Origin: Candidatus Latescibacterota bacterium | GTDB taxonomy: Bacteria > Latescibacterota > UBA2968 > UBA8231 | Length of the DNA stretch: 64,000 bases | Direction: 5' to 3' | Assembly (NCBI GenBank): GCA_965248265.1 | Contig: CBDFJF010000001.1 | Span: forward strand, 1,376,001-1,440,000 | Part shown: in pieces, positions 1 through 11,944 of the stretch | How the letters are laid out: each line of letters starts with the position of its first letter | How positions within the stretch are numbered: the first letter of the stretch is position 1 | Program-made: the position numbers and the translations under genes | The notes under the pieces: generated by a model | Databases searched by the model: none | Told to the model about the DNA's origin: nothing | Seen by the model: the letters and a program-made list of their open reading frames with translations, nothing else

Positions 1-1
1 G

Positions 2-1609
2 TTCTTTGGTCTGCTGAGGGCGCTGGCCAACGCGCATTCGGTTGCCTTTGTAACCACTTCCCACCTCACGTTGCAGTCTCTGTGCCATACCAGTCAGATC
101 TCCGAATCACCCTTCTTCAATATTTTCGCTGAATTAAAAATCGGACCGTTCAACGAAGCGGAGGTCAAGGAGCTCGTTGCCAAACCCTCAGCCAGTGCGG
201 GGACGCCACTCTCGACCCACGAAGAAACGCTCGTGGATCTCAGCGGCCATCTGCCCCTATTCCTCCAGATTGCCTGTGCGGCCGCGTTCGAGTGTTTGAA
301 TGAGAACCAGGACCATGAGCTGATCCACTCTCTCCTTGAGCAGCGCTTCATGGAGGAGGCAGTCTCTCACTTTCGATATATATGGGATCATTTCGATGAA
401 GCTGAGCGGGAAACCGCTGTAATCCTGGCCGTCAATTCCACGCCCACGGCTGCCCTTTCTACGGTGCGCTCCCTCCTGGGAGACGGTTTCGTGCGCAATG
501 TGCAGGGCCGGACCCGGCTTTTTTCGGCCTCGTTTTCCGCTTTCGCTAGAGAGCAGATGCCGGAGGTGCCGAAGGCGACCGCGGGCAGTATTCCATCGCC
601 CCCATCCAGCCTCGAACCGCCCATGAGATCGGCGATCGACCCGGTAGCCGAAGAAGAAGATCCATTTCCGCAAATCGTGGGCCGCAGCATCGCCATCCGT
701 CGCGTATTCGCCTTGATGCAAAAGGCCGTCGTCGCAGACGATACCGTCCTGCTCACGGGCGAGACCGGCACCGGCAAGGAACTGGTCGCCCGCTGTATTC
801 ACGAGAGCAGCCGGCGCGGCAGCGGTCCTTTCGTTGCGGTGAACTGCGGCGCAATCGCCGAACACTTGCAGGAGAGCGAGTTGTTCGGTCATAAGAAGGG
901 TGCATTCACCGATGCGGCCGCCGATCGCGAGGGATTGTTCGAAGCCGCTCATGAGGGCACGCTTTTTCTAGACGAGATCGGCGAGGTGGGCAGTGCCACC
1001 CAGGTCAAACTTCTGCGCGTTTTGCAGGAGGGGGAGATCCGCCGCGTGGGCGAGAATCACGCCCGCCAGGTGGATATCCGCCTCATTTGCGCCACCAACC
1101 GGAACCTTGAAGAAGAAGTAGAGGCGGGCCGATTCCGCCAGGATCTCTACTATCGCCTCTACGTAATCGCGCTCGAGCTTCCGGCCCTGCGCGATCGCAC
1201 GTCAGATATCCGCCTGTTGGTGGACAGCTTTCTGGCGGAGTATCCGGCGGGCACAACCGAGGATGCAGTGACCCATCTAAATGGTTACTCTTGGCCTGGA
1301 AACATTCGCGAGCTGGAAAATCAGCTTGCCAGCGCCCGCGCGATGGCAGGGGGCGATGCGATCCGTCCCCAACATCTGTGGCCCCGATTGCAGCTGGCCG
1401 CTGCCGAAGATGTCAACGTTGGTGGCTTCCGCACCGAGCTGACCAATTCCCTCTCCTTCAAAGAGGCTCGGGAGCAATTCGAAAGAGACTTGATCCAGTC
1501 ACGGCTGGAGAGACATGATTGGGAGATCGGCGCGGCGGCCGAGGCGCTGGATATCTCGCGGAGTCGACTATACGAGCTCGTGAAGCGCCACGGATTGAAG
1601 CGAGAGTGA
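2..1609 (+). CDS. STAND-like NTPase (C-terminal part) fused to sigma54-dependent enhancer-binding AAA+ domain and Fis-type HTH; 5' end lies outside the window
   Basis: The frame is open from base 2 (FFGLLRALANAHSVAFVTTS...). It shares the LCxTxxIxxSPFFNIF motif with 5021 and 6056. A Pro-rich linker is followed by Walker A GETGTGKE, ESELFGH, GAFTDA, Walker B LFLDEIGE, RFRQDLYYRL, WPGNIRELEN and the C-terminal HTH AAEALDISRSRLYELVK. Confidence 0.93.
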   Translation, partial: FFGLLRALANAHSVAFVTTSHLTLQSLCHTSQISESPFFNIFAELKIGPFNEAEVKELVAKPSASAGTPLSTHEETLVDLSGHLPLFLQIACAAAFECLNENQDHELIHSLLEQRFMEEAVSHFRYIWDHFDEAERETAVILAVNSTPTAALSTVRSLLGDGFVRNVQGRTRLFSASFSAFAREQMPEVPKATAGSIPSPPSSLEPPMRSAIDPVAEEEDPFPQIVGRSIAIRRVFALMQKAVVADDTVLLTGETGTGKELVARCIHESSRRGSGPFVAVNCGAIAEHLQESELFGHKKGAFTDAAADREGLFEAAHEGTLFLDEIGEVGSATQVKLLRVLQEGEIRRVGENHARQVDIRLICATNRNLEEEVEAGRFRQDLYYRLYVIALELPALRDRTSDIRLLVDSFLAEYPAGTTEDAVTHLNGYSWPGNIRELENQLASARAMAGGDAIRPQHLWPRLQLAAAEDVNVGGFRTELTNSLSFKEAREQFERDLIQSRLERHDWEIGAAAEALDISRSRLYELVKRHGLKRE

Positions 1610-1628
1610 TATCCGCTCTGCGTCACGC

Positions 1629-1675
1629 GTCCGGAAAACAGGATTTCCGACCTGAATCCGTCTTGAATCCCGGAC
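1629..1675. promoter_or_regulatory. Two imperfect 16-bp dyads, candidate upstream activator sequences for the sigma54 activator
   Basis: GTCCGGAAAACAGGAT (1629-1644) and GTCTTGAATCCCGGAC (1660-1675) both approximate GTCCGG-N4-CCGGAC. They are 31 bp apart (about 3 helical turns) and about 100-150 bp upstream of the -24/-12 element. Confidence 0.55.
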
Positions 1676-1776
1676 AGCTGAACTGACCCTCGCCGATTTT
1701 CCCGTCCATCCATTTTTCTCTAAGTTACAATGAAAATTCGACGTTACGTATCATGGGCGTCTTTCGGGACTTGCGG

Positions 1777-1791
1777 TGGCACGGCCATTGC
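1777..1791 (+). promoter_or_regulatory. sigma54 (RpoN) -24/-12 promoter
   Basis: TGGCAC-GGCCA-TTGC is an exact match to TGGCAC-N5-TTGC. It lies in the intergenic gap between a bEBP gene and a tightly packed operon. Confidence 0.88.
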
Positions 1792-1865
1792 GATAGAGAA
1801 CCCGGAGGCAGTCCGTTGATGCCAGATTGGACTCCAAACTTGAAAAAACTTCACTGAAGTGGAAT

Positions 1866-4208
1866 ATGGCACCCTCTCAACAAACCGGTGAGTTCAGTCC
1901 CATTTCGCCGAACCCGTTTATTACGGGCAATCCAGTACGTGATCCCAGCCTCTTCTTCGGGCGGGAGGACGATTTCGCCCACGTGCGCCAACGCCTCATC
2001 GCCGAGTCGGAAGGCATCGTGATGCTGTTCGTCGGCGAGCGGCGCAGCGGCAAGACCTCCATCATGTTCCAGATCCTGGATGGTCGCCTGGGCGAGGAGT
2101 TCCTGCCGATCTTCATCGACATGCAACAGATCGCCGGTATTACGGGGGACAACGACCTGCTGGGACGCATCGCCGAGTTCACCATCGAGCAGATCGATGA
2201 CCAGCGGCTGGTAGTTGAGTACTACGACTTTGCTCAAGGGAATCCCGTACTCACGTTCGACCGGTTGCTGGACGATATCCGCCAGATCTTCCCAGACAAG
2301 CGCCTGGTTTTTCTGGTAGACGAGGCGGAGATCCTGCAAGCCAAGGAAATGCGTGAGGAGATCACCAGCGCCGCCGTGATGTACCTCTCCAATATCCTCG
2401 AGAGTCGGAATGTGTCGTTCTGCTTCACCGGTTCCAGCGGTCTGGCCGACTCAGGCAGTACGGGCTGGCGTCGCTTGATCAGCAAGGGGGAAGCACGGGA
2501 GATCACCTTCCTGAGCAAGACCGATACCCTGCGTCTGATACAGCATCCCGTTGAGGGGCGCGTACACTACGGAGAGGGGGTGGTCGACTCGATTTACGAC
2601 CTCACTTTCGGCCATCCGTTCTACACCCAGGTGATTTGCACCAACGTCGTGGACTATCTCAATGAAGCGCAGAAAAACGATTTGAGTGTGGAAGGTCTGC
2701 AGGACGTCGTGCGCACGATCATCGACAACCCACCCCCGCAGATGGTGTACGCCTGGGACGAATTGAGTGACACGGACAGGCTTTCTCTTTCGCTGTTGAG
2801 CGAGGAGAGCGACGAGGCCGTTCTGGTAAAGCCGCAGGAACTCTTTGAGAAAATTAGTGAAAACAATTATCCACTGCAGCTGAAGTCGGATGCGTTGCAC
2901 AAGTCGCTGGAGGATCTTTACGCACACAAGGTGCTGGAACGGGACGACGAAGGAGGATATCGGTTCAGGGTCGATCTCTTTCGCCAGTGGATCCGGCGGG
3001 CCCGCTCCATCTGGAGCCTGGTAGAAGAGCAAGCCCCGCACAAGGGTCGGCAGGCGGTCTGGGCCGGCGCTGGTGTCGTCGCTTTCGCACTCGCAGCTAC
3101 GCTGGGATACTGGCTTTCCGGATCAACGGATAGTGAAACTTCAGCTGGAGTTACCCCGCCTGCGCTGGAGAAGGGCCGCATGTGGGTCGAATCGGACCTG
3201 CGCGAGGTGCAGGTTCTCGTAAACGGCGTGGAACGAGCCTCGAGAGCGCCTGTAATGATTTCCGATCTGCAACCGGGGAATTACAAAGTCGAGGTGAAGA
3301 AACCGAAGTTTCACACCTGGAGTCGTGAGGTAGCCATCCATGCGGGGCAAACCGACAGTCTTCAGGTCGATCTGGTGCGCCAGACCGGATCCCTCAGCGT
3401 GCGCTCCCAACCGGCAGGGGTGTTGGTACAGATCGAAGGCGAGCTCGACACCAGCGCAGTCACTCCCATCGAAGAACTGGCTCTGCCAACAGGGGGTTAC
3501 CAGGTTTTGATGAGACAGCAAGGATACGTCGAACAACGCCGCACAGTGGTTATCGACGATGGCGCCCCCGTGGAGGTGCAGTTCCAGCTGCGCGCCCGGG
3601 TGGGCAACATCTATGTCGAATCACAACCACGAGGTGCCCTGATCCTGCTCGATGGCAAGTCTACCGGCTTGAAGTCGCCTGCGCTTCTGCAAGGCCAACC
3701 GGTAGGTCGCCACAACGTCGGACTGCGGCTTGCCGACTATCAAACCACCGACAAACAAATCGACGTCGCTCTGGGGCAGACGGACACGGTGCGTTGGAGT
3801 TTGACGTTAAACCCCGCCCAAATCCAGATAACCAGTGTCCCCCCGGGCGCGGATATCCTCATCGATGGAAAAACGCATGGCCAGACGCCGGCCGGAATTC
3901 AACTCGAGCCGGGCCGATATCGGTTGCAGCTCGTACTGGAAGGTTACGAGCCCCACGAATTAGAGCAGGAGCTTCAGCCGGGCCAGTCCTACGAACCGCG
4001 GATCACTCTTGTGCCCCAGTACGGTTGGTTGCGAATCGTGAAACCCCTCTTCGGCACGGTGGTCATCAATGGCTCCGACGAACACACGGTGCCACCGGGT
4101 GATATACAGCTGCAAGTAGGCGCCTATAGCATCGCGAGCAAAGGGAATACCCAATCCACGAAGGTTACCGTCACCAAGGGTGATACAGTAAAGGTCTCAT
4201 TGCCATGA
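1866..4208 (+). CDS. STAND-like NTPase - single transmembrane helix - extracytoplasmic PEGA repeats
   Basis: NPFITGNPV...FFGRE N-terminus, Walker A GERRSGKTS, Walker B LVFLVDEAE, GHPFYTQ, TM helix WAGAGVVAFALAATLGYWL, then 4-5 PEGA-type repeats (VRSQPAGV, VESQPRGALILLDG, ITSVPPGADILIDG..GQTP). The start is ATG 1866 or TTG 1827. Confidence 0.88.
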   Translation: MAPSQQTGEFSPISPNPFITGNPVRDPSLFFGREDDFAHVRQRLIAESEGIVMLFVGERRSGKTSIMFQILDGRLGEEFLPIFIDMQQIAGITGDNDLLGRIAEFTIEQIDDQRLVVEYYDFAQGNPVLTFDRLLDDIRQIFPDKRLVFLVDEAEILQAKEMREEITSAAVMYLSNILESRNVSFCFTGSSGLADSGSTGWRRLISKGEAREITFLSKTDTLRLIQHPVEGRVHYGEGVVDSIYDLTFGHPFYTQVICTNVVDYLNEAQKNDLSVEGLQDVVRTIIDNPPPQMVYAWDELSDTDRLSLSLLSEESDEAVLVKPQELFEKISENNYPLQLKSDALHKSLEDLYAHKVLERDDEGGYRFRVDLFRQWIRRARSIWSLVEEQAPHKGRQAVWAGAGVVAFALAATLGYWLSGSTDSETSAGVTPPALEKGRMWVESDLREVQVLVNGVERASRAPVMISDLQPGNYKVEVKKPKFHTWSREVAIHAGQTDSLQVDLVRQTGSLSVRSQPAGVLVQIEGELDTSAVTPIEELALPTGGYQVLMRQQGYVEQRRTVVIDDGAPVEVQFQLRARVGNIYVESQPRGALILLDGKSTGLKSPALLQGQPVGRHNVGLRLADYQTTDKQIDVALGQTDTVRWSLTLNPAQIQITSVPPGADILIDGKTHGQTPAGIQLEPGRYRLQLVLEGYEPHELEQELQPGQSYEPRITLVPQYGWLRIVKPLFGTVVINGSDEHTVPPGDIQLQVGAYSIASKGNTQSTKVTVTKGDTVKVSLP

Positions 4209-5002
4209 AAAATTCTCGAAGGGTGGGTACAGTTGTCGCAGCCGTGGTAATGGTCGCCACTCCGCTTTTGAGCCAGGATTCGCCGTTGCAAAAAGCGATT
4301 GCTCAATTTTACGAGGGGGAATGGGAAGGATCGATTGGCGCGATGAACGTGTTGCTTGCGGATGACTCGATGGCGCTCGACGAACAATCGATGGCACGAA
4401 AATTCGTCGCCCTTGGTTACATACTCCTGGGACGGGACGCGGAAGCCGTGTCAGTCTACAAACAGATCGTTCGCGATGATCCGTCTTTTGACATGGACGC
4501 ATTGTCCATAGAGGGAGGGGAGACCCCGGAGGCAGCAGTCCGTTTCTTTGGCCAGGCGATATTGGAGGTGCGTCAGGAAGACATGCGGACTCGGGAAGCT
4601 CAGCTGGCGCGGACCTCGCGCCGAAGCGCGCTGCTGCGTTCCGCCCTGCTACCTGGATGGGGCCAACGCTATCAGGGGTACCGGGGCCGCAGTTTTGTGA
4701 TGATGGGGGGCATGGCGGCGGCGGCCATTTACGCCGTCTCCACGGAGCGCGCCTACCGGACGGCCAAAGATGACTACGAAATGGCGCGTCCTGGTGCCGA
4801 TTTCGAAAACCTGTTCGACGAGTACACCCGCAAGGCAGACCAGTCCGATGTGGCCATCGGCATTCTTGGGGCGGTCTGGCTGTACAATGTGCTGGATACG
4901 GTTTTTCAGGGGCCGAATATCGAACGTCCCAGCGGCGGCTTATTCCTGTGGAACGGGCCCGGTGAACAGGGCCTGCGCATGAGTTACAGAGTGAGATTCT
5001 AA
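4205..5002 (+). CDS. Exported protein: signal peptide, TPR-like helices, DUF5683-like C-terminal hydrophobic domain
   Basis: ATGA overlap with the upstream gene; signal peptide MKNSRRVGTVVAAVVMVATPLLS; motif SALLPGWGQRY followed by two hydrophobic segments; ends in YRVRF. Confidence 0.7.
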   Translation: MKNSRRVGTVVAAVVMVATPLLSQDSPLQKAIAQFYEGEWEGSIGAMNVLLADDSMALDEQSMARKFVALGYILLGRDAEAVSVYKQIVRDDPSFDMDALSIEGGETPEAAVRFFGQAILEVRQEDMRTREAQLARTSRRSALLRSALLPGWGQRYQGYRGRSFVMMGGMAAAAIYAVSTERAYRTAKDDYEMARPGADFENLFDEYTRKADQSDVAIGILGAVWLYNVLDTVFQGPNIERPSGGLFLWNGPGEQGLRMSYRVRF

Positions 5003-5020
5003 GGAGAAAGCGGGTCGAAC

Positions 5021-6046
5021 GTGGAAAACCCATACGTACACACTCGTCCCATCGAGGGCAACAATGAATTCTACAACCGCACGTCCGAGATCATGCGGAT
5101 CTCCTCTCGGGTGGCGGCGGACCGGCCACAGTCGGTCTCCATCGTTGGTGAACCGGGCATCGGTAAGACCTCACTACTGAACTGGCTGTGCGATCCGACC
5201 TCCCAAGCAGAGTATCTCGACGAGCCCGACTCGTACGTGATGCTGCTACTCAGCCTCGAGAAAAATTCTCCCGAGAATCCCGAAGCGTTCTTTGGCCTCG
5301 TGCAAACCGCTCTCGACGCGGCCGATCGCGGATCGATGAAGCCCAACTACGACGGATTCAACGATCTGGTGAAACGGTTGATGCAGGAAAAGAAAAAGCT
5401 GGTTCTGTTCTGCGATGACTTCGGAGCCGTAACCCAGCACCAGGATTTTCCACTGGACTTCTTCTCCTTCATGCGCTCCTTGGCCAACAGCCACGATGTT
5501 GGATATGTGACCACTTCTTCGGGACCCTTGCAGAAGTTGTGTCACACCCAGGATATCGAGGAGTCGCCCTTCTTCAACATCTTCACCACCGTTAATCTCG
5601 AGGCTTTCAAGGCCGAAGAAGCCCGGCGCCTCGTGGAGGAACCAGCCCGGGCGGCGGGTCGACCGTTCGAGCAGGAGACCGAATGGGTGCTGGATCTGGG
5701 GGGCAACCTCCCTTACCTGTTGCAGGCCACGGCCAGCATCGCCTTCGATGTTCGCATCAACGGATCTATTGAGCAAGAAGACCTGCGCGACGCCGCCGCC
5801 AGGGAGGTGAAGGGATACCTCGAAGCCCTGTGGGAAGATGCGTTTACCGAGGCGGAGCAGGAGGTCCTGCGCCGCCTCTCTGGTGGCAAACCGGTGGAAC
5901 GCCGCCTGGAGTTTGCCGCCGAGGCATTGGAACGCAGTGGTCATCTGCGTAGAGCCGGCTCCGACTACGAGATCGCCGCGGGTCTGCTTGCCCGCTTTGT
6001 CAAGGATCACAGCAGCGGCGGTTTTCTGAAACGGTTGTTCGGCTGA
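5021..6046 (+). CDS. Stand-alone STAND-like NTPase with C-terminal amphipathic tail
   Basis: RBS AAGGAG upstream; NPY..RPI....FYNR; Walker A GEPGIGKTS; Walker B LVLFCDDF; SPFFNIF; GNLPYLLQ; ends in GGFLKRLFG. Confidence 0.88.
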   Translation: MENPYVHTRPIEGNNEFYNRTSEIMRISSRVAADRPQSVSIVGEPGIGKTSLLNWLCDPTSQAEYLDEPDSYVMLLLSLEKNSPENPEAFFGLVQTALDAADRGSMKPNYDGFNDLVKRLMQEKKKLVLFCDDFGAVTQHQDFPLDFFSFMRSLANSHDVGYVTTSSGPLQKLCHTQDIEESPFFNIFTTVNLEAFKAEEARRLVEEPARAAGRPFEQETEWVLDLGGNLPYLLQATASIAFDVRINGSIEQEDLRDAAAREVKGYLEALWEDAFTEAEQEVLRRLSGGKPVERRLEFAAEALERSGHLRRAGSDYEIAAGLLARFVKDHSSGGFLKRLFG

Positions 6047-6055
6047 GGGATCCAT

Positions 6056-7846
6056 TTGAAAATCCCGCGCAATCCCTATCTAAACCGCTCGATGATCCGT
6101 GCGCCCAGCATGTTCTACGGGCGTCGCAAGGAAGTGATGCGTCTGGCGTCGCGCATCGGGGCGGATCCACCCCAGTCGGTGGCGATCGTCGGGGACCGCC
6201 GCATTGGCAAGTCTTCCCTGTTGTCCTACATCGCTCATCCAGACATCGTTGCGGATTATCTGGACGATCCCGACAAGGCACTGTTTCTGTTCATGGATTT
6301 TCAGGAGGAGCTGCGCCTGAGCATTGCGGGATTCATCGAATCAGTGTTTCGCCATCTGCAAGGCCAACTGCCGGTATTGATCCCGCAGGATCCGACCCCA
6401 GACCATCTGCGGGAGCTGGTGGCACAACTCCATCGGGATGGCTACCGGCTCATCCTGCTTCTGGATGAGTTCGATCGCTTAACGCGCAGCTCGAACTTCG
6501 ATGCCGACTTCTTCGCCCATCTGCGCTCACTCTCTGGGCATTTCAACATCGCCTTCGTCACTTCCACCAGCCGCGATCTGCAGAAGCTCTGTCGCACTCA
6601 AGAGATCTCCGATTCACCTTTTTTCAACATCTTTTCCACCGTTTATCTAGGACCGCTGGAATCCGACGAGGCGGTCGCCCTCATTCGCGAGCCGTCTGGA
6701 TCGACCCCGTTTCCGCTTGAACAATACATGGATATGATTCTCGAACTCGGTGGTCATTTCCCGTTCTTCCTCCAAATGGCTTGCTCCGCCGCCTTCGAGG
6801 TGTTGGTCGAAGAGGGTGAATGCATTCGCGAGCGCGTCGAGGCCCGATTTTTGGAAGAAGCCAGTCCTCATTTTCAATTTTACTGGGAGCAGATGGGAGC
6901 AGTGGACCGAGCACTTTGCAATCAGATGGCCATTGAAGGCGAAGTGGATATGGCGAGCTCGGAATGCCAGGAGCTGCAGCGTCGCGGCTTCGCCCTGGAG
7001 AAGGGGCGGCTCTTCTCCACCGCGTTTGCCAACTTCGTCCGGGAATCCTACGAGCGTGAAATCGGCGAGGTGCCCTTGGAAGTCCAGGCTGAGCGTGCAC
7101 GGAGCATGGAGGAGGAGCTTGACCGTGCGCGAGAGATGCAGATGGGACTTCTGCCCCAGAAAAGTCCTCAAACCGATGGGTTCGACCTGGCGGGACGGTG
7201 TGAACCGGCAACGCAGGTTGGGGGCGATTTCTACACCTACGTCTGGCTCGATGAGGCTCACACCAGGCTGGCCATCGTCGCCGTGGACGTCATGGGGCAC
7301 GGAATGCAGGGTGCCGTGACCGCGCTGCGATTCAGCGAAACACTTCGCTACGAAGTAAGGGAATGCGGCGATGCGGTGAAATTGCTGAGTGCTCTGAACC
7401 GGGCGCTATGCGGAACGCTCAAAAGTGGCGAGTTCGTCGGTTGCTGTGTCGCTGTCTTGGACGTGACCGAGCGCCGTCTCGACGTGGCGGTGGCTGGGTA
7501 CCATCCCCCCCTGCACTACGAGGCTGAAGCGGGAATGGTGAGGGAACTCGAGTTGGGCAATCTGCCCTTGGGAATCAAGGAGGATACCGACTACGTGGGC
7601 ACCTCGTTCAAGTTGAACAAGGATGACCGGTTGCTGTTCTACTCGGATGGGGTGATCGAGGCGCAGGACGACAGACAAGTGTTATACGGCGAGGAGCGCA
7701 TACAGGAACTGCTGTTGCAGAGTACGCGGGAAGGGTTGGACTCGGAGGCGCTGTTGGACCGACTGTACTGGGACGTGGGACGATTCTCGGCGAGCACGGG
7801 ACAGCAGGATGATACAACCTCGATCGCCGTGCGCGTGACGCGCTAG
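6056..7846 (+). CDS. STAND-like NTPase fused to PP2C/SpoIIE (RsbU-like) Ser/Thr phosphatase
   Basis: NPYLNRSMI...FYGR, Walker A GDRRIGKSS, Walker B LILLLDEFD, SPFFNIF, GHFPFFLQ. Then the linker EEELDRAREMQMGLLP and PP2C motifs VGGDFY, VDVMGHG, YSDGVIE, QQDDTT. Confidence 0.92.
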   Translation: MKIPRNPYLNRSMIRAPSMFYGRRKEVMRLASRIGADPPQSVAIVGDRRIGKSSLLSYIAHPDIVADYLDDPDKALFLFMDFQEELRLSIAGFIESVFRHLQGQLPVLIPQDPTPDHLRELVAQLHRDGYRLILLLDEFDRLTRSSNFDADFFAHLRSLSGHFNIAFVTSTSRDLQKLCRTQEISDSPFFNIFSTVYLGPLESDEAVALIREPSGSTPFPLEQYMDMILELGGHFPFFLQMACSAAFEVLVEEGECIRERVEARFLEEASPHFQFYWEQMGAVDRALCNQMAIEGEVDMASSECQELQRRGFALEKGRLFSTAFANFVRESYEREIGEVPLEVQAERARSMEEELDRAREMQMGLLPQKSPQTDGFDLAGRCEPATQVGGDFYTYVWLDEAHTRLAIVAVDVMGHGMQGAVTALRFSETLRYEVRECGDAVKLLSALNRALCGTLKSGEFVGCCVAVLDVTERRLDVAVAGYHPPLHYEAEAGMVRELELGNLPLGIKEDTDYVGTSFKLNKDDRLLFYSDGVIEAQDDRQVLYGEERIQELLLQSTREGLDSEALLDRLYWDVGRFSASTGQQDDTTSIAVRVTR

Positions 7847-7927
7847 GGGGCCGAATCATATGAGCGCTCGATGCCGACGCCATTGGACACTGAGCGCGGG
7901 CGGGTTTCTCTTGCCGTGCGGGGGTAG

Positions 7928-9304
7928 TTAGGGAGTCTCCTGCAGCCGCAGAAGCTTGCCGCCCCCGGCCACCAGGTTCAGCTCCACCCGCGACCCGTCC
8001 GAAGCCGGGCGCCACTGCCGTTCCTCGGTGTCGAACTCTTCCAGCGCTCCCGGGCCGACTACCGTCGTCGTGATCGCTTGTGAATGGTCCAGGTTCACGA
8101 CCAGGACGTGTGTTGTCTCGCCGGTTGATCCGAAGTAGCCCCAGAGGACGCCCTTCTCCTGCTGTGGATCGAAAGACGGATCCACGGAAAACTCCGCGTC
8201 GGCCGGAAGTGCATCCACGGTCCAGGCGCCCACGGGCGCTTGCCCGGAGTGATACACGGCGAGGGAAGTCAGCGGTTGCAGCTGTTGTGCTACGGCGACG
8301 AACTCGGGATGAATTTGACGCAGGGCCTCGCCAAGCGGGGTCAGTGGCGCCGCCACGTCGGCCGCGGCGCGTTCCGCGTTCCACTCGACGTCCTCGAACG
8401 CTGAAATGCCCCCGTAGAAGTCACTGTAGGCCCAGTAGGTGAACTGCATGATGCCCTGGCCGCCGTAGGCGAGCGTCGTGTAGGCCAGGTACCTGCTCTC
8501 ATCGCTGTTGGGCGCACGGTGGCGCTCACCCACTGAAACAGCCTCCACCACGTTGATGAAGGGAATGCCTCCGTTCAGGGCTGCCTCACGCACCAGCGCC
8601 AGGTTCATGAAGTAGGTGTTGCTCGCATGCAGGTTTGCACCTGCCTCGTCGTCCGTGTAGAGGCTGTAGTGATCGTAGCTGATCAGGTCCGGCTTCACCA
8701 CCTGGACGAACTGACGCAGGTGTTCTCTGTAGGCTGTTTCCGTATCGCCTGCGGTACCCAGCGCCGCGGCACTTGCGTACGTCGGGAACAGGTTTATGTG
8801 CGATACATGGGCGGGATCACGCTCGCGGATGTAGTCGACGATCCTGGCGAGCTCTGGAAACCTGACCGCGCTGGGTTCGTCGACGATTCTGTAGGAATAA
8901 AGAGCGGGATGGTCCTTCACGCTGTCGATGACCGAGTCGATCCGCGCCCTGGCTATCGGGTCGTCCAGGTTAGCGGGCTCTCTCAGGTCCTGGGCGATCA
9001 GGTCTAGCCGCAGCCCGTGTGCATGGGCGACGTCGAGGTCTTCGACCGTACTTCCCCAGGCCAGGGTGAACCCCCCGTCGACCAGTTTTCGGGCCATCCC
9101 GGGTGTCAGCGGGCCAAATCGAGTATCGATTCCGCCTCCGGGGCCGTGGTAATAGCCGACAATCGGTGTTCCGATCTCCCACACGCTGACCTCCGGTTGT
9201 TGCTGGCTCGCCTTGGTCAAGAAACCGGCACACCCCGGGGCAAAAAGGCAAAGAAGGCAGATCCCCCCCATACGAACGGCGCCTGCGATGCCGCGCGCGT
9301 TCAT
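7928..9304 (-). CDS. Lipoprotein, TIM-barrel glycoside hydrolase-like family A (copy 1)
   Basis: Start at the ATGA overlap with the upstream stop; lipobox-like FAPGC; conserved WEIGTPIVGYYHGPGGG, HPALYSY, DEP, INLFPTYA, ISYDHY, LAYGGQG. Paralogous to 9301, 13113 and 30992. Confidence 0.75.
   Translation of the reverse strand: MNARGIAGAVRMGGICLLCLFAPGCAGFLTKASQQQPEVSVWEIGTPIVGYYHGPGGGIDTRFGPLTPGMARKLVDGGFTLAWGSTVEDLDVAHAHGLRLDLIAQDLREPANLDDPIARARIDSVIDSVKDHPALYSYRIVDEPSAVRFPELARIVDYIRERDPAHVSHINLFPTYASAAALGTAGDTETAYREHLRQFVQVVKPDLISYDHYSLYTDDEAGANLHASNTYFMNLALVREAALNGGIPFINVVEAVSVGERHRAPNSDESRYLAYTTLAYGGQGIMQFTYWAYSDFYGGISAFEDVEWNAERAAADVAAPLTPLGEALRQIHPEFVAVAQQLQPLTSLAVYHSGQAPVGAWTVDALPADAEFSVDPSFDPQQEKGVLWGYFGSTGETTHVLVVNLDHSQAITTTVVGPGALEEFDTEERQWRPASDGSRVELNLVAGGGKLLRLQETP
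9090..9182. repeat. 93-bp near-identical direct repeat with 10463-10555, inside the tandem family A paralogs
   Basis: Hand alignment shows 5 mismatches in 93 bp over the region encoding WEIGTPIVGYYHGPGGGIDTRFGPLTPGMAR. Confidence 0.8.
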
Positions 9305-10674
9305 TCGTTCACCTGCAGGCGCAGCAACATGCCGCCGCCCGCCACCAGATTCACCTGCGCCCGCGAACCATCTGAAACCGGTCGCCACTGCCGCACCCGG
9401 GCGTCGAATTGCTCCATGGTGCCCGGACCGACGACCGTCGTCGTGATTTCCCGCTCGAAATCCAGGTTCACGATCAGGACGTGGGAGGACGCGCCGGTCG
9501 ATCCGAAGTAGCCCCACAGGATTCCCTCGCCTTGCTCTGGATCGAGAGGGGGATCCTCCGAAAACACCGCAGCAGCGGGGAGTTCATCAATAGGCCACGT
9601 TCCCGCAGGCATGCGCCCGGAGTGATACACGGCAAGGGATGTCAGTGGCTGCAGCTGCTCGGCGACGGCGATGAACTCGGGGTGAATCTGACGGACCGCC
9701 TCGCCCAACGGGGTCAATGGCGCCGCCACGTCGGCGGCAGCGCGCTCTGTGTTCCACCCGACGTCTTCGAATGCTGTTATGCCTCCGTAGAAATCGCCAT
9801 AGGGCCAGTAGGTGAAATGGGAGATACCTTGACCGCCGTAGGCCAGGGTGGTGTAACCGAGGTACCGACTCTCAGCGCCGGTGGGAATGCGGTGGGACAC
9901 ACCGACTGAGACCGCCTGAATGACGTTGATGAAGGGAATGCCTCCGTAGAGCGAGGCCTCGCGCGCCAGCGCCAGATTCATGAAGTACTGATTGTCCTGG
10001 TGCAGGTTCGTGCCTTCCTCGTCATCCGTGTACAGGTTGTAGTGATCGTAGCTGATCAGGTCCGGCTTGACGACGTCGACGAACTGGCGCAGGTGTTCGC
10101 GGTAGGCCTCGACGGGGCCACCGGCGGTGCCCAGTGCCACAGCACTTGCGTAGGTCGGGAACAGATTCATGTGGGCCAAATGGGCGGGATCGCGCTCGCG
10201 CAGGTACTCGACGATCCTGGCGAATTCGGGAAATCTGATCGCGCTTGGCTCATCCGTAATCTGATACGAATACAGGGCAGGATGGTCCTTCACGCTTTCA
10301 ATCAGGGCGTCCATCCTCGCCCTGACCACCGGGTCGTCCAGGTTGCCTGGCTCTCTCAGATCCCAGGCGATCAGGTCTACTCGCAGTCCGTGCGCGTGGG
10401 CGACATCCAGGTCTTCAGCGGTGGTTCCCCAGGCCAGGTTGAACCCCCCGTCAACCAGCCGCCGGGCCATCCCGGGTGTCAGCGGACCAAATCGAGTATC
10501 GATTCCGCCTCCGGGGCCGTGATAGTAGCCGACAATCGGAGTGCCGATCTCCCACTGCTTGGCCTCAGCTAGCTTGGTCGCTTTGGCGAAGGGACCCGCG
10601 CAGCTCAAAAGAAGAAGGCAAAACACGCCTGTGCATGCCCTAACTACCCCGAATCCTCGCAATGCCGCGGTCAC
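9301..10674 (-). CDS. Lipoprotein, TIM-barrel GH-like family A (copy 2)
   Basis: Lipobox LLLSC and the same motif set as copy 1. The start is uncertain: GTG 10674 gives the same length as copy 1, while the longer ORF overlaps the next gene. Confidence 0.75.
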   Translation of the reverse strand: MTAALRGFGVVRACTGVFCLLLLSCAGPFAKATKLAEAKQWEIGTPIVGYYHGPGGGIDTRFGPLTPGMARRLVDGGFNLAWGTTAEDLDVAHAHGLRVDLIAWDLREPGNLDDPVVRARMDALIESVKDHPALYSYQITDEPSAIRFPEFARIVEYLRERDPAHLAHMNLFPTYASAVALGTAGGPVEAYREHLRQFVDVVKPDLISYDHYNLYTDDEEGTNLHQDNQYFMNLALAREASLYGGIPFINVIQAVSVGVSHRIPTGAESRYLGYTTLAYGGQGISHFTYWPYGDFYGGITAFEDVGWNTERAAADVAAPLTPLGEAVRQIHPEFIAVAEQLQPLTSLAVYHSGRMPAGTWPIDELPAAAVFSEDPPLDPEQGEGILWGYFGSTGASSHVLIVNLDFEREITTTVVGPGTMEQFDARVRQWRPVSDGSRAQVNLVAGGGMLLRLQVNE

Positions 10675-10795
10675 TGAGACGACCCTTCGACTCTGCCGGC
10701 CGCGCGGAGATCTGTTGAAATGAAACTCGGAATCATTGCCGGACCTTTCATGGTTTCTTGCATGAATACCGCAACGGGGTCGCCTGGGAAGCAGC

Positions 10796-11944
10796 TTACT
10801 TCTCCGCGACAATGGCCCCCTCGATGCCGCGATGATTGTCGGTGTAGTGATGCCAGTAGACGACGAGGACCCGTCCGTCATTGAGCTCCACCGACCATGG
10901 ATAGCCGCAATCGTGGCTGAACGCGTCGCTCTGGATGACGATGTCCGGCGTCGTCTCCAGATCCGGCGCCCTGTTGTAGATGGGTGCCGTCTCCAGCTCG
11001 GTGCCCTCGGGGTCCAGAACTCTGGCCAGACAGCCCGATTGCCCATCCCAGCGGGTGCCGACGGTCAAGAAAATGCGCCCGTCTCGCAACCCAAGCATGT
11101 GGGCGGGGTAGCCGTGCACGGAACGCTTCCACGGCGTCCAGGTCTCCCCTTCATCGTCGGATATGACCAGGGCCTGAAAGCGGCTGTCGTACTGGCGATC
11201 TCGCAGGGGTATGCTCTCGTCCTGATCCTGCGAGGTGTTGGCATGGCAGCGAAAGATCACCAGGATGCGGCCACTCGGCGTTCGGTGAATGGCCGGCTCG
11301 CTGAAGTGGGCGACGGGGTCCTCGGCGATTCGTCCGCCGTACTCCCAGGTCTCGCCCATGTCGCGGGAGACACGCAACATGCCGAAGTAGGTATGCTCGC
11401 CCTCAGGCCGTTCGGTCGCCTTGCTCGGCATCAGCAGACGTCCATCCGGAAGCTCGATCAGGCCGCTCCTGCAGACCCCCGAGTGCTCGACCTCATGACC
11501 CCAGCCCGCATCCGGCACGGGGGGAAAGCGCACTGGGTTGGTCCAGGTGTGGCCGTCGTCCCGCGAACGGATCCAGAAAGGCGTGCCATACCGCGAGACC
11601 CACTCGGTCCCATGCGCCTCGGACCCCTCTGCGGGCACCAGCTCCGTGCACGAGCAGTGTATGAAGATGCTCCCGTCCGAAAGGGTGTGGACACCGCGGT
11701 CGATGATCCCTCCCAGGGGATCGGAGGCTATCAGCGTGGCCTCGCTCCATGTCTGTCCCTCGTCTTGCGAGCGGCAGGCCTGTAGATTGAACAGCGGATG
11801 GCCGTGGTGGGGGTGACCCAGATGCGGTGCCCGTTGGAAGAACGCCATCAGATCACCGGATGGCGTGCGAACCACATTCGGACACAGGGCGTACATTCCC
11901 TCTTCGTGATATATCGTCACGCGGTCGACGACTTCCCAGCCCAT
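10796..11944 (-). CDS. BNR/Asp-box beta-propeller (sialidase-like) protein
   Basis: Asp-boxes SQDEGQTW, SRDDGHTW, SRDMGETW, SDDEGETW; DCGYP near the C-terminus; close paralog of 25287-26432. Confidence 0.85.
   Translation of the reverse strand: MGWEVVDRVTIYHEEGMYALCPNVVRTPSGDLMAFFQRAPHLGHPHHGHPLFNLQACRSQDEGQTWSEATLIASDPLGGIIDRGVHTLSDGSIFIHCSCTELVPAEGSEAHGTEWVSRYGTPFWIRSRDDGHTWTNPVRFPPVPDAGWGHEVEHSGVCRSGLIELPDGRLLMPSKATERPEGEHTYFGMLRVSRDMGETWEYGGRIAEDPVAHFSEPAIHRTPSGRILVIFRCHANTSQDQDESIPLRDRQYDSRFQALVISDDEGETWTPWKRSVHGYPAHMLGLRDGRIFLTVGTRWDGQSGCLARVLDPEGTELETAPIYNRAPDLETTPDIVIQSDAFSHDCGYPWSVELNDGRVLVVYWHHYTDNHRGIEGAIVAEK
10853..11389. repeat. 537-bp inverted near-identical repeat with 25839-26375
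   Basis: The C-terminal halves of the two BNR paralogs span equal lengths and share long exact nucleotide runs, e.g. caggatcaggacgagagcatacccctg. Confidence 0.8.

Follow-up and report, generated by a model that had tools for sequence, protein, structure and literature searches.

A probable receptor-coupled NTPase relay with a sigma54 feedback promoter in a Latescibacterota gene cluster

What might five tightly packed genes do together when four of them encode related NTPase modules, each joined to a different partner? The question is raised by the first 7.8 kb of a 64-kb stretch of DNA from Candidatus Latescibacterota bacterium (assembly GCA_965248265.1, contig CBDFJF010000001.1, positions 1,376,001 to 1,440,000; hereafter the window), in which the genes g1 to g5 follow one another on the plus strand (Table 1). 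The initial annotation, made from the letters alone, had described four paralogous STAND-like NTPases connecting a PEGA membrane receptor with a sigma54 activator and a PP2C phosphatase, the NTPase domain serving as a shared hetero-oligomerisation module. The analysis reported here leads to the conclusion that the cluster is probably a receptor-coupled NTPase relay with sigma54 feedback, made up of two related families of STAND/Orc-Cdc6-like NTPases, and that the NTPase module seems to serve as a common docking unit by which a membrane receptor is linked to output proteins.

Table 1. Features of the g1-g5 cluster; positions are those of the window unless C1, the contig that carries the window, is named.
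Feature	Position	Strand	Content
g1	2-1609 (visible part; 5' end outside window)	+	nSTAND2, Sigma54_activat, AAA_lid_14, HTH_8 (Pfam)
g2	1827-4208	+	Putative receptor: NTPase, one transmembrane helix, five PEGA beta-sandwiches
g3	4205-5002	+	DUF5683, exported or membrane protein
g4	5021-6046	+	Stand-alone nSTAND2 NTPase, 341 amino acids
g5	6056-7846	+	nSTAND2 fused to SpoIIE-type PP2C
fn3/NHL gene	C1:1373338-1375269 (outside window, upstream of g1)	divergent	Lipoprotein-like N-terminus
Predicted sigma54 (-24/-12) promoter	1777-1791	+	TGGCACGGCCATTGC; within the g1-g2 spacer (217 nt) and 36 nt ahead of the earliest possible start codon of g2
Candidate upstream activator site	1629-1677	+	GTCCGGAAAACAGGA (1629-1643) and TGAATCCCGGACAG (1664-1677)

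The NTPase modules belong to two families. The Pfam family nSTAND2 (PF20702, a model of 279 positions with a curated cut-off of 24 bits) matches g4 (123.7 bits, positions 1-270), g5 (144.7 bits, positions 1-273) and the visible part of g1 (89 bits, positions 133-273). A genome search for PF20702 finds the g1 module complete and N-terminal (C1:1375654-1376427, 135 bits, model positions 3-273); the full gene, C1:1375549-1377609, starts 451 nucleotides (nt) upstream of the window and encodes 686 amino acids (aa), of which the C-terminal 535 are visible. The g2 protein has no match to PF20702 at E ≤0.1, and its matches to AAA_14, AAA_22 and ATPase_2 all lie below the cut-offs; matches of the AAA_16, AAA_35 or ATPase_2 type had been expected for these modules. 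The g1, g4 and g5 modules are 34-41% identical pairwise, a range that becomes 33-47% among nSTAND2 members when a fifth copy from contig C2 of the same genome is added. The g2 and g1 modules share 22% identity in the alignment, and BLASTP aligns only 65 residues between g2 and g4 (E 4e-5). Profile-profile comparison of 47 g4 homologues with 38 g2 homologues by hhalign extends over 314 columns (99.5%, E 3.5e-22, 19% identity). Judged by these profiles, the g2 NTPase is clearly homologous to nSTAND2 and forms a separate, distantly related receptor family; the four paralogues of the initial annotation are homologues throughout, g1, g4 and g5 being nSTAND2 proteins and g2 a member of the related family.

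The motifs that had been read from the sequence as common to the modules (NPY/F, FxGR, Walker A, Walker B and GxPxxxQ) are invariant or almost so in the alignment, in which the columns N4, P5, F18, R21, G49 and K50 (Walker A), D137 (Walker B) and Q240 do not vary among the four modules and the fifth paralogue. All four modules retain GK[ST] and an acidic Walker B, and the Walker residues are likewise invariant among homologues: G75, K76, D165 and E166 in the 38 of g2, and G48, K49 and D132 in the 47 of g4, a protein with 107 homologues of mostly 336-346 aa. AlphaFold2 models (mean predicted local distance difference test, pLDDT, 85.1 for g2; pLDDT 93.9 and predicted template modelling score 0.90 for g4) contain core strands and helices, then further helices, then a C-terminal two-strand hairpin with helices. 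Fold searches with g4 return the archaeal ATPase_2 structures 2qen (template modelling score 0.64) and 2fna (0.62), followed by Orc/Cdc6 proteins (Orc2, Cdc6), plant nucleotide-binding leucine-rich repeat receptors (NLRs) and Avs3; searches with the g2 NTPase return Orc1/Cdc6 and chains of the NRC resistosome (NB-ARC domains of plant NLRs), and searches with the PEGA part of g2 a beta-sandwich repeat protein. The best match in the Protein Data Bank by sequence profile is 2fna (E 2.7e-5), a close solved relative not being found. In the models, the modules have the P-loop core, intact Walker A and B, helical lid and winged helix of the STAND/Orc-Cdc6-like NTPase class, to which they appear to belong. 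The fifth nSTAND2 protein of the genome (894 aa, C2:479831-482515, minus strand) has C-terminal TPR repeats and no g2-type receptor gene nearby, is followed by genes for a 675-aa TPR protein and a 973-aa M6-peptidase/FlgD_ig protein, and has the appearance of a classical STAND in which one protein includes its own sensor.

Genes of the two families lie next to each other across phyla. A same-strand nSTAND2 gene lies within 3.5 kb in 68 of 80 loci seeded with g2 homologues, and within 100 nt in 38 of those; the loci come from Latescibacterota, Krumholzibacteria, Eisenbacteria, Spirochaetales, Blastocatellia/Acidobacteriota, Calditrichota and Cloacimonadota. In the reverse test, on 79 loci seeded with g4-like genes, a receptor gene lies within the same distance in 48, which is 48 of the 58 with enough flank; 21 of the 79 have less than 2.5 kb of upstream sequence. 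All ten partners sampled by Pfam are nSTAND2 fusions, six of them with Pkinase (on either side), three with Guanylate_cyc and one with both. Labels assigned to the nSTAND2 (N2) genes by phmmer at E ≤1e-4 over the 159 loci are N2+kinase (68), solo (46, a number that open reading frames (ORFs) at contig ends may inflate), kinase+N2 (32), N2+sigma54 (10), cyclase+N2 (10), N2+PP2C (7), kinase+cyclase+N2 (5), N2+cyclase (3) and unassigned (3). The g2 NTPase family is itself large: out of 1.84 billion representatives, 634 clusters (50% identity) pass E ≤1e-30 and 3414 pass E ≤1e-10. Its members take two forms, with the NTPase either N-terminal to a transmembrane helix and PEGA repeats or, in proteins of about 1400 aa, C-terminal to long ectodomains in which CarboxypepD_reg, Reg_prop and Y_Y_Y are found, and in both forms the NTPase is, by predicted topology, cytoplasmic. 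Spirochaete loci have the layout of the window minus g1, namely a PEGA receptor, a coupled gene for a signal-peptide protein of about 305 aa, a solo nSTAND2 gene and a cyclase-nSTAND2 gene, and most loci of other phyla consist of a receptor and a kinase- or cyclase-nSTAND2 gene only, with neither g3 nor the fn3/NHL gene.

Multimer modelling of the NTPase domains, which the initial annotation had proposed as a check, supports a contact between g2 and g4. With residues 1-415 of g2 and g4 each entered as an alignment, together with two ATP and two Mg, the interface score ipSAE was 0.89 (0.87, 0.89 and 0.90 in the runs) against 0.00 for the best of three controls; the runs agreed in at least 79% of contacts, and the pLDDT of the partners was at least 89. 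In the model, g4 contributes residues 145-157 (FFSFMRSLAN, including R152) and 181-192 (SPFFNIF) to the interface, and g2 an NPF segment (27-39), the P-loop (72-77), a DMQ segment (96-104) and NPPPQ (300-305). Conserved columns are concentrated there, at 19 of 46 interface residues versus 37 of 295 others in g4 (p 1e-5) and at 18 of 42 versus 88 of 373 in g2 (p 0.007). The surfaces are also specific to the families: 89 of 98 nSTAND2 homologues contain SPFFNxF, as against none of 120 receptor-family proteins, NPPPQ occurs in the PEGA-type receptor only, and in the alignment g2 is without an arginine at the position of R152 in g4. This asymmetry suggests that the receptor offers a nucleotide site for which the partner would supply the arginine.

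Such a division of roles bears on the possibility that the tandem paralogues act separately, each as a self-contained homo-oligomerising STAND switch, with their linkage reflecting shared regulation only. Classical STAND proteins do work as homo-oligomers, as stated in the available part of PMC6468293, the fifth nSTAND2 protein, with its TPR repeats, has no adjoining receptor gene, and receptor-less nSTAND2 loci exist elsewhere, ten of the nSTAND2-seeded set being of this kind. Separate action is nonetheless highly improbable in view of four findings: g1, g4 and g5 have no sensor domain, the two distinct subfamilies are paired reciprocally across phyla, the g2-g4 complex model passes while its controls score zero, and the surface motifs are distributed asymmetrically, nSTAND2 alone having SPFFNIF and the conserved arginine and the PEGA-type receptor alone having NPPPQ.

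The relay may be pictured as follows. The g2 protein would be the receptor, its PEGA repeats directed towards the envelope and its NTPase lying in the cytoplasm behind a single transmembrane helix, and g3 together with the fn3/NHL lipoprotein would probably partner it on the outer side. The soluble nSTAND2 proteins g4, g1 and g5 would dock on the receptor NTPase through their SPFFNIF and FFxxxRSxAN surfaces, with g4 perhaps in the role of an adaptor and g1 and g5 binding either g2 or g4; the conserved arginine of the partner, placed beside the receptor P-loop, might act as an arginine finger and make docking dependent on nucleotide. A signal passing inwards would then, by docking or release, switch the fused outputs, the sigma54 activator of g1 and the PP2C of g5. 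As g1 would drive both the promoter of g2-g5 and a second promoter, that of the relocated fn3/NHL gene, the system would feed back on its own synthesis. The shared hetero-oligomerisation module of the initial annotation is strengthened by the neighbourhood counts in both directions (68 of 80 and 48 of 79), by the g2-g4 model and by the family-specific interface motifs, with the correction that g2 stands outside nSTAND2 by Pfam.

The domains of the single proteins agree with these roles. The partners that had been assigned to the four modules (an enhancer-binding domain with a helix-turn-helix, a transmembrane helix with PEGA repeats, none, and PP2C) stand, Pfam confirming the sigma54-activator and PP2C fusions. 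In g1, Sigma54_activat (232 bits) and HTH_8 (32.5 bits) are accompanied by AAA_lid_14, and the sequence of the L1 loop is GAFTDA; of the 36 homologues that have the ELFGH..G context, 27 show [AS]FTDA there and nine [AS]FTG[AS]. With a Sigma54_activat domain, a GAFTGA-type loop, a helix-turn-helix and both rpoN and a promoter in the genome, g1 has the sequence features of a bacterial enhancer-binding protein (bEBP). Homologues of its module are also fused to DUF4384, TPR, FliM/N, Trans_reg_C and CHAT domains. The g5 phosphatase domain (SpoIIE/PP2C, PF07228, 141 bits, profile positions 3-191) carries GGDFY, DVMGHG, YSDG and QQDD, which we take to be the metal-binding motifs of PP2C, and the same nSTAND2-PP2C fusion recurs in the homologues P0054, P0081, P0082, P0085 and P0087 and in metagenome loci. 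There are six SpoIIE-type matches genome-wide and one STAS_2 match, which lies far from the locus. Hydropathy finds no hydrophobic segment in g1, g4 or g5, and Pfam no sensor domain of their own in these three proteins.

In g2, the NTPase (approximately residues 45-400, with Walker A GERRSGKT and Walker B VDEAE) precedes a single hydrophobic segment (residues 410-428 by hydropathy) and PEGA repeats that score 168 bits in Pfam, the predicted topology being a cytoplasmic NTPase and extracytoplasmic PEGA repeats; the database copy of the protein (P0104, 780 aa) begins 13 codons later, at ATG 1866. The start of g3 overlaps the stop of g2, and its product has an N-terminal signal-like segment, a helical TPR-like region and a hydrophobic segment at 216-234. 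Its earlier description as an exported TPR/DUF5683-like protein coupled to the receptor is borne out for the coupling and for DUF5683 (31.5 bits against a cut-off of 26.7), the TPR matches remaining below threshold. The g3 gene lies between g2 and g4 in 12 of 12 Latescibacterota-type loci. Compared with the gene in the same position in Spirochaetes (signal peptide, about 305 aa), it reaches 34% in hhalign (E 4e-4, 108 columns), and Pfam finds no DUF5683 in the three Spirochaete copies of the receptor-coupled gene tested; the two are treated as positional analogues only. The Spirochaete proteins (L087, L099, L068, L081, L101, L104 and L105) end in an aromatic-rich FANLxxYxFYTF, a tail that presumably resembles the C-terminal signal of outer-membrane beta-barrels, and g3 ends in ...YRVRF.

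How widely the arrangement is kept was assessed in 40 relative genomes, 24 of them in the same family. Full-length g2 orthologues occur in four of these 24 (G021, G006, G008 and G019), with weaker matches in other families. All five genes stand in the same order in G021 (70-77% identity) and G006 (42-56%), and G019 has g1-g4 up to the contig end. A metagenome scan seeded with g4 adds eight further contigs of the cluster type, among which L113 has the order g1-g2-g3-g4-g5. Recurrence of the five-gene order, another check put forward at the outset, is thus complete in G021, G006 and L113 and partial in G008 and G019. Throughout the 12 loci of the cluster type (four genomes and eight metagenome contigs), g2, g3 and g4 are found together; the nSTAND2-sigma54 and nSTAND2-PP2C genes shift place in L115, L118 and L123, and the PP2C gene was not found in L116 and L117. 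The fn3/NHL lipoprotein gene belongs to the system as its sixth conserved member: full-length homologues are present in eight of the 12 loci, in most cases as the gene that immediately follows g5 or g4 on the operon strand, and of the other four loci three are contigs that end before this position and one, L116, has a weaker 736-aa relative only. The six genes retain 37-77% identity across relatives with their order kept, and inheritance of the cluster may be vertical rather than mobile.

With this composition, the cluster could instead be a machine for envelope assembly or maintenance, the NTPases building or remodelling a complex of PEGA, DUF5683 and fn3/NHL proteins while the sigma54 activator and PP2C tune expression. 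Half of the six conserved genes have exported or membrane proteins as products, the core of g2, g3 and g4 is invariant while the regulator genes come and go, and two groups of loaders and assemblers, Orc/Cdc6 and RFC, have the nearest folds. Signalling, however, fits better with the loci of other phyla, which mostly hold a receptor and a kinase- or cyclase-nSTAND2 gene without g3 or the fn3/NHL gene. One of the receptors of about 1400 aa (L043) carries Reg_prop and Y_Y_Y sensor domains by Pfam, a pair typical of hybrid two-component sensors; the NTPase lies on the cytoplasmic side of a single helix, and no transporter or secretion component occurs among the neighbours scanned. The assembly explanation is accordingly an unlikely one.

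Expression of the cluster appears to be under sigma54 control. The pattern TGGCAC-N5-TTGC has a sole zero-mismatch match in the 64-kb window, the promoter listed in Table 1; at up to two mismatches the pattern is at chance level there (63 matches found, 67 expected), so that only the perfect site and its conservation count. The site is perfect in G021, G008 and G006 and has one mismatch in G019, and a site with one mismatch at most lies near the g2 start in seven of 11 g3-containing loci versus one of 96 receptor loci of the kinase or cyclase type. L118 has the PP2C gene at the head of the operon, and there a site with one mismatch is found upstream of that gene. The genome encodes rpoN (sigma54) and contains 35 perfect sites, about 17 being expected from composition; two of the 35 flank g1, the second lying about 100 nt upstream of the divergent fn3/NHL gene and on the strand of that gene. 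At 100-150 nt upstream of the -24 element, the two parts of the candidate activator site make a GTCCGG...CCGGAC inverted repeat, and a GTCYGGRAARNNGGAC-like repeat with a CCGGACA element is present in the g1-g2 spacer of all five genomes compared. From its sequence, this repeat is a plausible binding site for the helix-turn-helix of g1. The conserved sigma54 promoter and the upstream repeat before g2 make it likely that the bEBP g1 regulates its own operon, and we infer a feedback loop in which g1 acts as activator of g2-g5 and, in this genome, of the relocated fn3/NHL gene as well. A scan of positions 1-8300 gave no sigma70 promoter-like site and six terminator-like sites, every one of them on the minus strand and in a number that chance would give.

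Sites of a similar kind were seen elsewhere. In G008 a perfect sigma54 site (L028:5937-5951) lies between g4 and the fn3/NHL gene and is directed away from the latter, and the matching spacer of G021 (L027), between g5 and the fn3/NHL gene, has a one-mismatch site likewise directed away; read by eye, the target of these outward sites is a putative small antisense ORF whose product would be a coiled-coil protein with a hydrophobic tail at its C-terminus. On the minus strand of C1 near position 1139962, outside the window, two tandem GTCCGGAAAAC-type repeats stand upstream of a TGGCAC...TTGC-like element with a spacer one base short, the gene that follows having a lipoprotein-like start; these repeats may mark a further target of g1 or of a related activator.

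A number of observations weigh against the relay as set out above. Concerning the complex model, ipSAE expresses model confidence and g2-g4 is the sole pair modelled; the ipSAE mark, reached by 58 of 80 solved complexes and two of 110 mismatched pairs, provides counts that are only a rough guide here, as the custom alignments and riding ligands differ from the calibration of the tool. Generic AAA+ packing, as known from the solved hetero-oligomers of ORC and RFC, may contribute to the score, and residues near an ATP site would be conserved with or without a partner, which weakens the enrichment of conserved columns at the interface. Pairing is incomplete: of the 12 receptor-seeded loci without an nSTAND2 gene, five have less than 400 nt of contig left and two have 1.4-2.5 kb, while five with at least 7.6 kb downstream (and L049, with 2.5 kb) are without an nSTAND2 neighbour, and ten nSTAND2-seeded loci have room for a receptor gene that was not found. 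Among the relatives, G008 keeps the gene order with g1 in two ORFs, g2 in three and g5 not found, and g5 of G021 is broken into two ORFs with a short deletion; such breaks could be decay or indel and assembly errors in metagenome-assembled genomes. No sigma54 site occurs near g2 in L117, L123 or L116 even at two mismatches, L116 having only 187 nt upstream, and G021 and G008, in which the fn3/NHL gene follows the operon, have not kept the site upstream of that gene. PEGA, finally, is also read as a cell-wall-associating module in conflict systems, in the available part of PMC7159879.

That last point belongs to another explanation, in which the cluster is a counter-invader (conflict) nSTAND2 system: the NTPases would detect an invader, or damage to the envelope, and set off effectors. 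Kaur, Iyer, Burroughs and Aravind (eLife 2021, PMC8195603) named nSTAND2 and, in the part of their paper that was available, describe a mobile two-gene operon read as counter-invader, in which two STAND proteins, one with eroded nucleotide motifs, are predicted to hetero-multimerise via a conserved arginine and GT4 or HEPN act as effectors. The shared family (PF20702 in g1, g4 and g5), the adjacent STAND-like NTPase genes, the variable fusions and the predicted hetero-multimer of two paired nSTAND2 proteins all speak for a connection with that operon as there described, and TM and PEGA modules are found in the iSTAND conflict systems according to the same portion of PMC7159879 (Kaur et al. 2020); the homologue P0098, moreover, has a CHAT domain (PF12770). 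The differences from what these portions report are nevertheless considerable. All four NTPases keep Walker A and B where the published operon has one eroded partner, one partner here is a putative transmembrane receptor of a separate subfamily that Pfam nSTAND2 does not detect, and a conserved, probably autoregulatory sigma54 promoter is present. The fusions are regulators (sigma54 activator, PP2C, Ser/Thr kinase, cyclase, winged helix-turn-helix) rather than nucleases, TIR or GT4, and Pfam finds no GT4 or HEPN domain in the cluster genes or the neighbours scanned; the cluster accordingly lacks both features that define the 2021 operon in the text available, the eroded NTPase motifs and the GT4/HEPN effector. 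The iSTAND ternary systems, described in their paper as an inactive STAND with adjacent vWA and MoxR genes and with PEGA noted after a transmembrane helix, have only this last arrangement in common with the cluster, whose NTPase motifs are intact and among whose scanned neighbours there is no vWA or MoxR gene.

No defence-system model of PADLOC-DB 2.0 matches beyond generic bEBP homology and weak matches of E ≥5e-6: g2 and g3 have no match, g4 and g5 have matches at E 4e-4 or worse, and in g1 the nSTAND2 part matches mad8 over 59 residues (E 5e-6) and the bEBP part RtcR-type models by generic homology. The order of the genes and the fn3/NHL neighbour are kept at 37-77% identity, a pattern that would suit vertical inheritance better than mobility. 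A conflict system is, on balance, distinctly unlikely.

Neither HisKA, HATPase nor a receiver domain was found by Pfam in g1-g5 or in 16 neighbouring proteins, and the early remark that no histidine kinase or receiver is visible holds for the five genes and the upstream neighbours scanned. The NCBIfam matches for the cluster represent generic bEBP and phosphatase homology only, well under the cut-off of each model. The suggestion that the upstream sequence might hold a Ser/Thr kinase or a further STAND fusion was not borne out: the divergent fn3/NHL lipoprotein gene comes first, then genes for an aldo-keto reductase, a PQQ-propeller protein and a PhyH protein. Further upstream, at C1:1363623-1367653 on the minus strand, are proteins of 703 and 668 aa with CarboxypepD_reg and FlgD_ig, in one of which a weak Por_Secre_tail match hints at a sorting signal like that of type IX secretion systems in this organism. 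Directly downstream of g5, at 7928-11046 on the minus strand, two ORFs of 529 and 581 aa overlap at 9301-9517; they have no Pfam match at E ≤0.001 and no homologue in 12 related loci at E ≤1e-10.

Beyond the window, it is conceivable, though short of probable, that the relay is one elaborate example of a widespread and undescribed mode of bacterial transmembrane signalling, an 'NTPase relay'. The STAND/Orc-like ATPase of a single-pass receptor would then be the transmitter and would nucleate ATP-dependent, head-to-tail docking of cognate nSTAND2 proteins, the partner supplying the arginine that the receptor module lacks and the docked outputs being a Ser/Thr kinase, a cyclase, PP2C, a sigma54 activator or a winged helix-turn-helix. 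Such a mode would parallel two-component systems in function and resemble the receptor-nucleated signalosomes of eukaryotes in mechanism. Bacterial transmembrane signalling is mostly ascribed to histidine kinases, chemoreceptors, Ser/Thr kinases, anti-sigma factors of the extracytoplasmic function type and membrane-anchored cyclases; if the proposal is true, a further route exists in which sender and receiver are both P-loop switch modules, and many instances of it would be expected in phyla that have received little study (Acidobacteriota, Latescibacterota, Spirochaetota, Cloacimonadota and Calditrichota). Part of Pfam nSTAND2, and numerous proteins that bear only the label 'AAA+ ATPase' or 'PEGA domain protein', would thereby acquire a function; sigma54 activators, PP2C phosphatases, kinases and cyclases would be seen to respond to a new type of input; and the proposal would show that STAND/NLR-like oligomerisation can be divided between receptor and outputs. 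The locus itself lends itself to testing: promoter and activator are defined, and the residues of the predicted interface are named. Beyond what the initial annotation contained, the analysis contributes the distinct receptor family, the cross-phylum pairing rule, the sigma54 feedback and the sixth gene.

In the literature searched, in which subscription journals and supplements were mostly outside coverage, no account was found of a receptor NTPase with nSTAND2 signalling outputs or of a fusion of STAND or nSTAND2 with a bEBP. The initial statement that no such system had been described agrees with this for the architecture as a whole, with the reservation that nSTAND2 is a Pfam family and that a paired nSTAND2 hetero-multimer had been predicted, as the available part of PMC8195603 states. 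Comparison with known systems shows the extent of the likeness in each case. The nearest solved folds are those of ORC/Cdc6, RFC and the archaeal ATPase_2 proteins PAB2304 (2qen) and SSO1545 (2fna), and ORC and RFC likewise have several paralogous subunits per assembly; sequence similarity to them is negligible, however, and the NTPases here are associated with a membrane anchor and signalling fusions, with no DNA-replication context. Known bEBPs controlled by partners other than receiver domains include PspF, with PspA, and NorR. The g1 protein resembles them in being a sigma54 activator without a receiver domain that would answer to a partner protein tied to the state of the envelope, and differs in that its regulatory domain is an N-terminally fused nSTAND2 NTPase, with no separate inhibitor like PspA. 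Classical STANDs such as MalT, AfsR, PknK and the TPR-STANDs hold sensor, switch and output in one soluble protein and undergo nucleotide-dependent homo-oligomerisation; they share with the cluster an NTPase switch and a helical or winged-helix extension fused to a transcription or kinase output, whereas here sensor and output are on separate proteins, each with an NTPase module, and the sensor would be a membrane receptor. With two-component systems, the cluster has in common a membrane sensor gene that adjoins the gene of its cognate cytoplasmic output and a similar set of outputs (sigma54 activator, winged helix-turn-helix, cyclase and PP2C), the difference being that P-loop NTPase modules here occupy the positions of transmitter and receiver and that coupling would take place by nucleotide-dependent docking instead of phosphotransfer.

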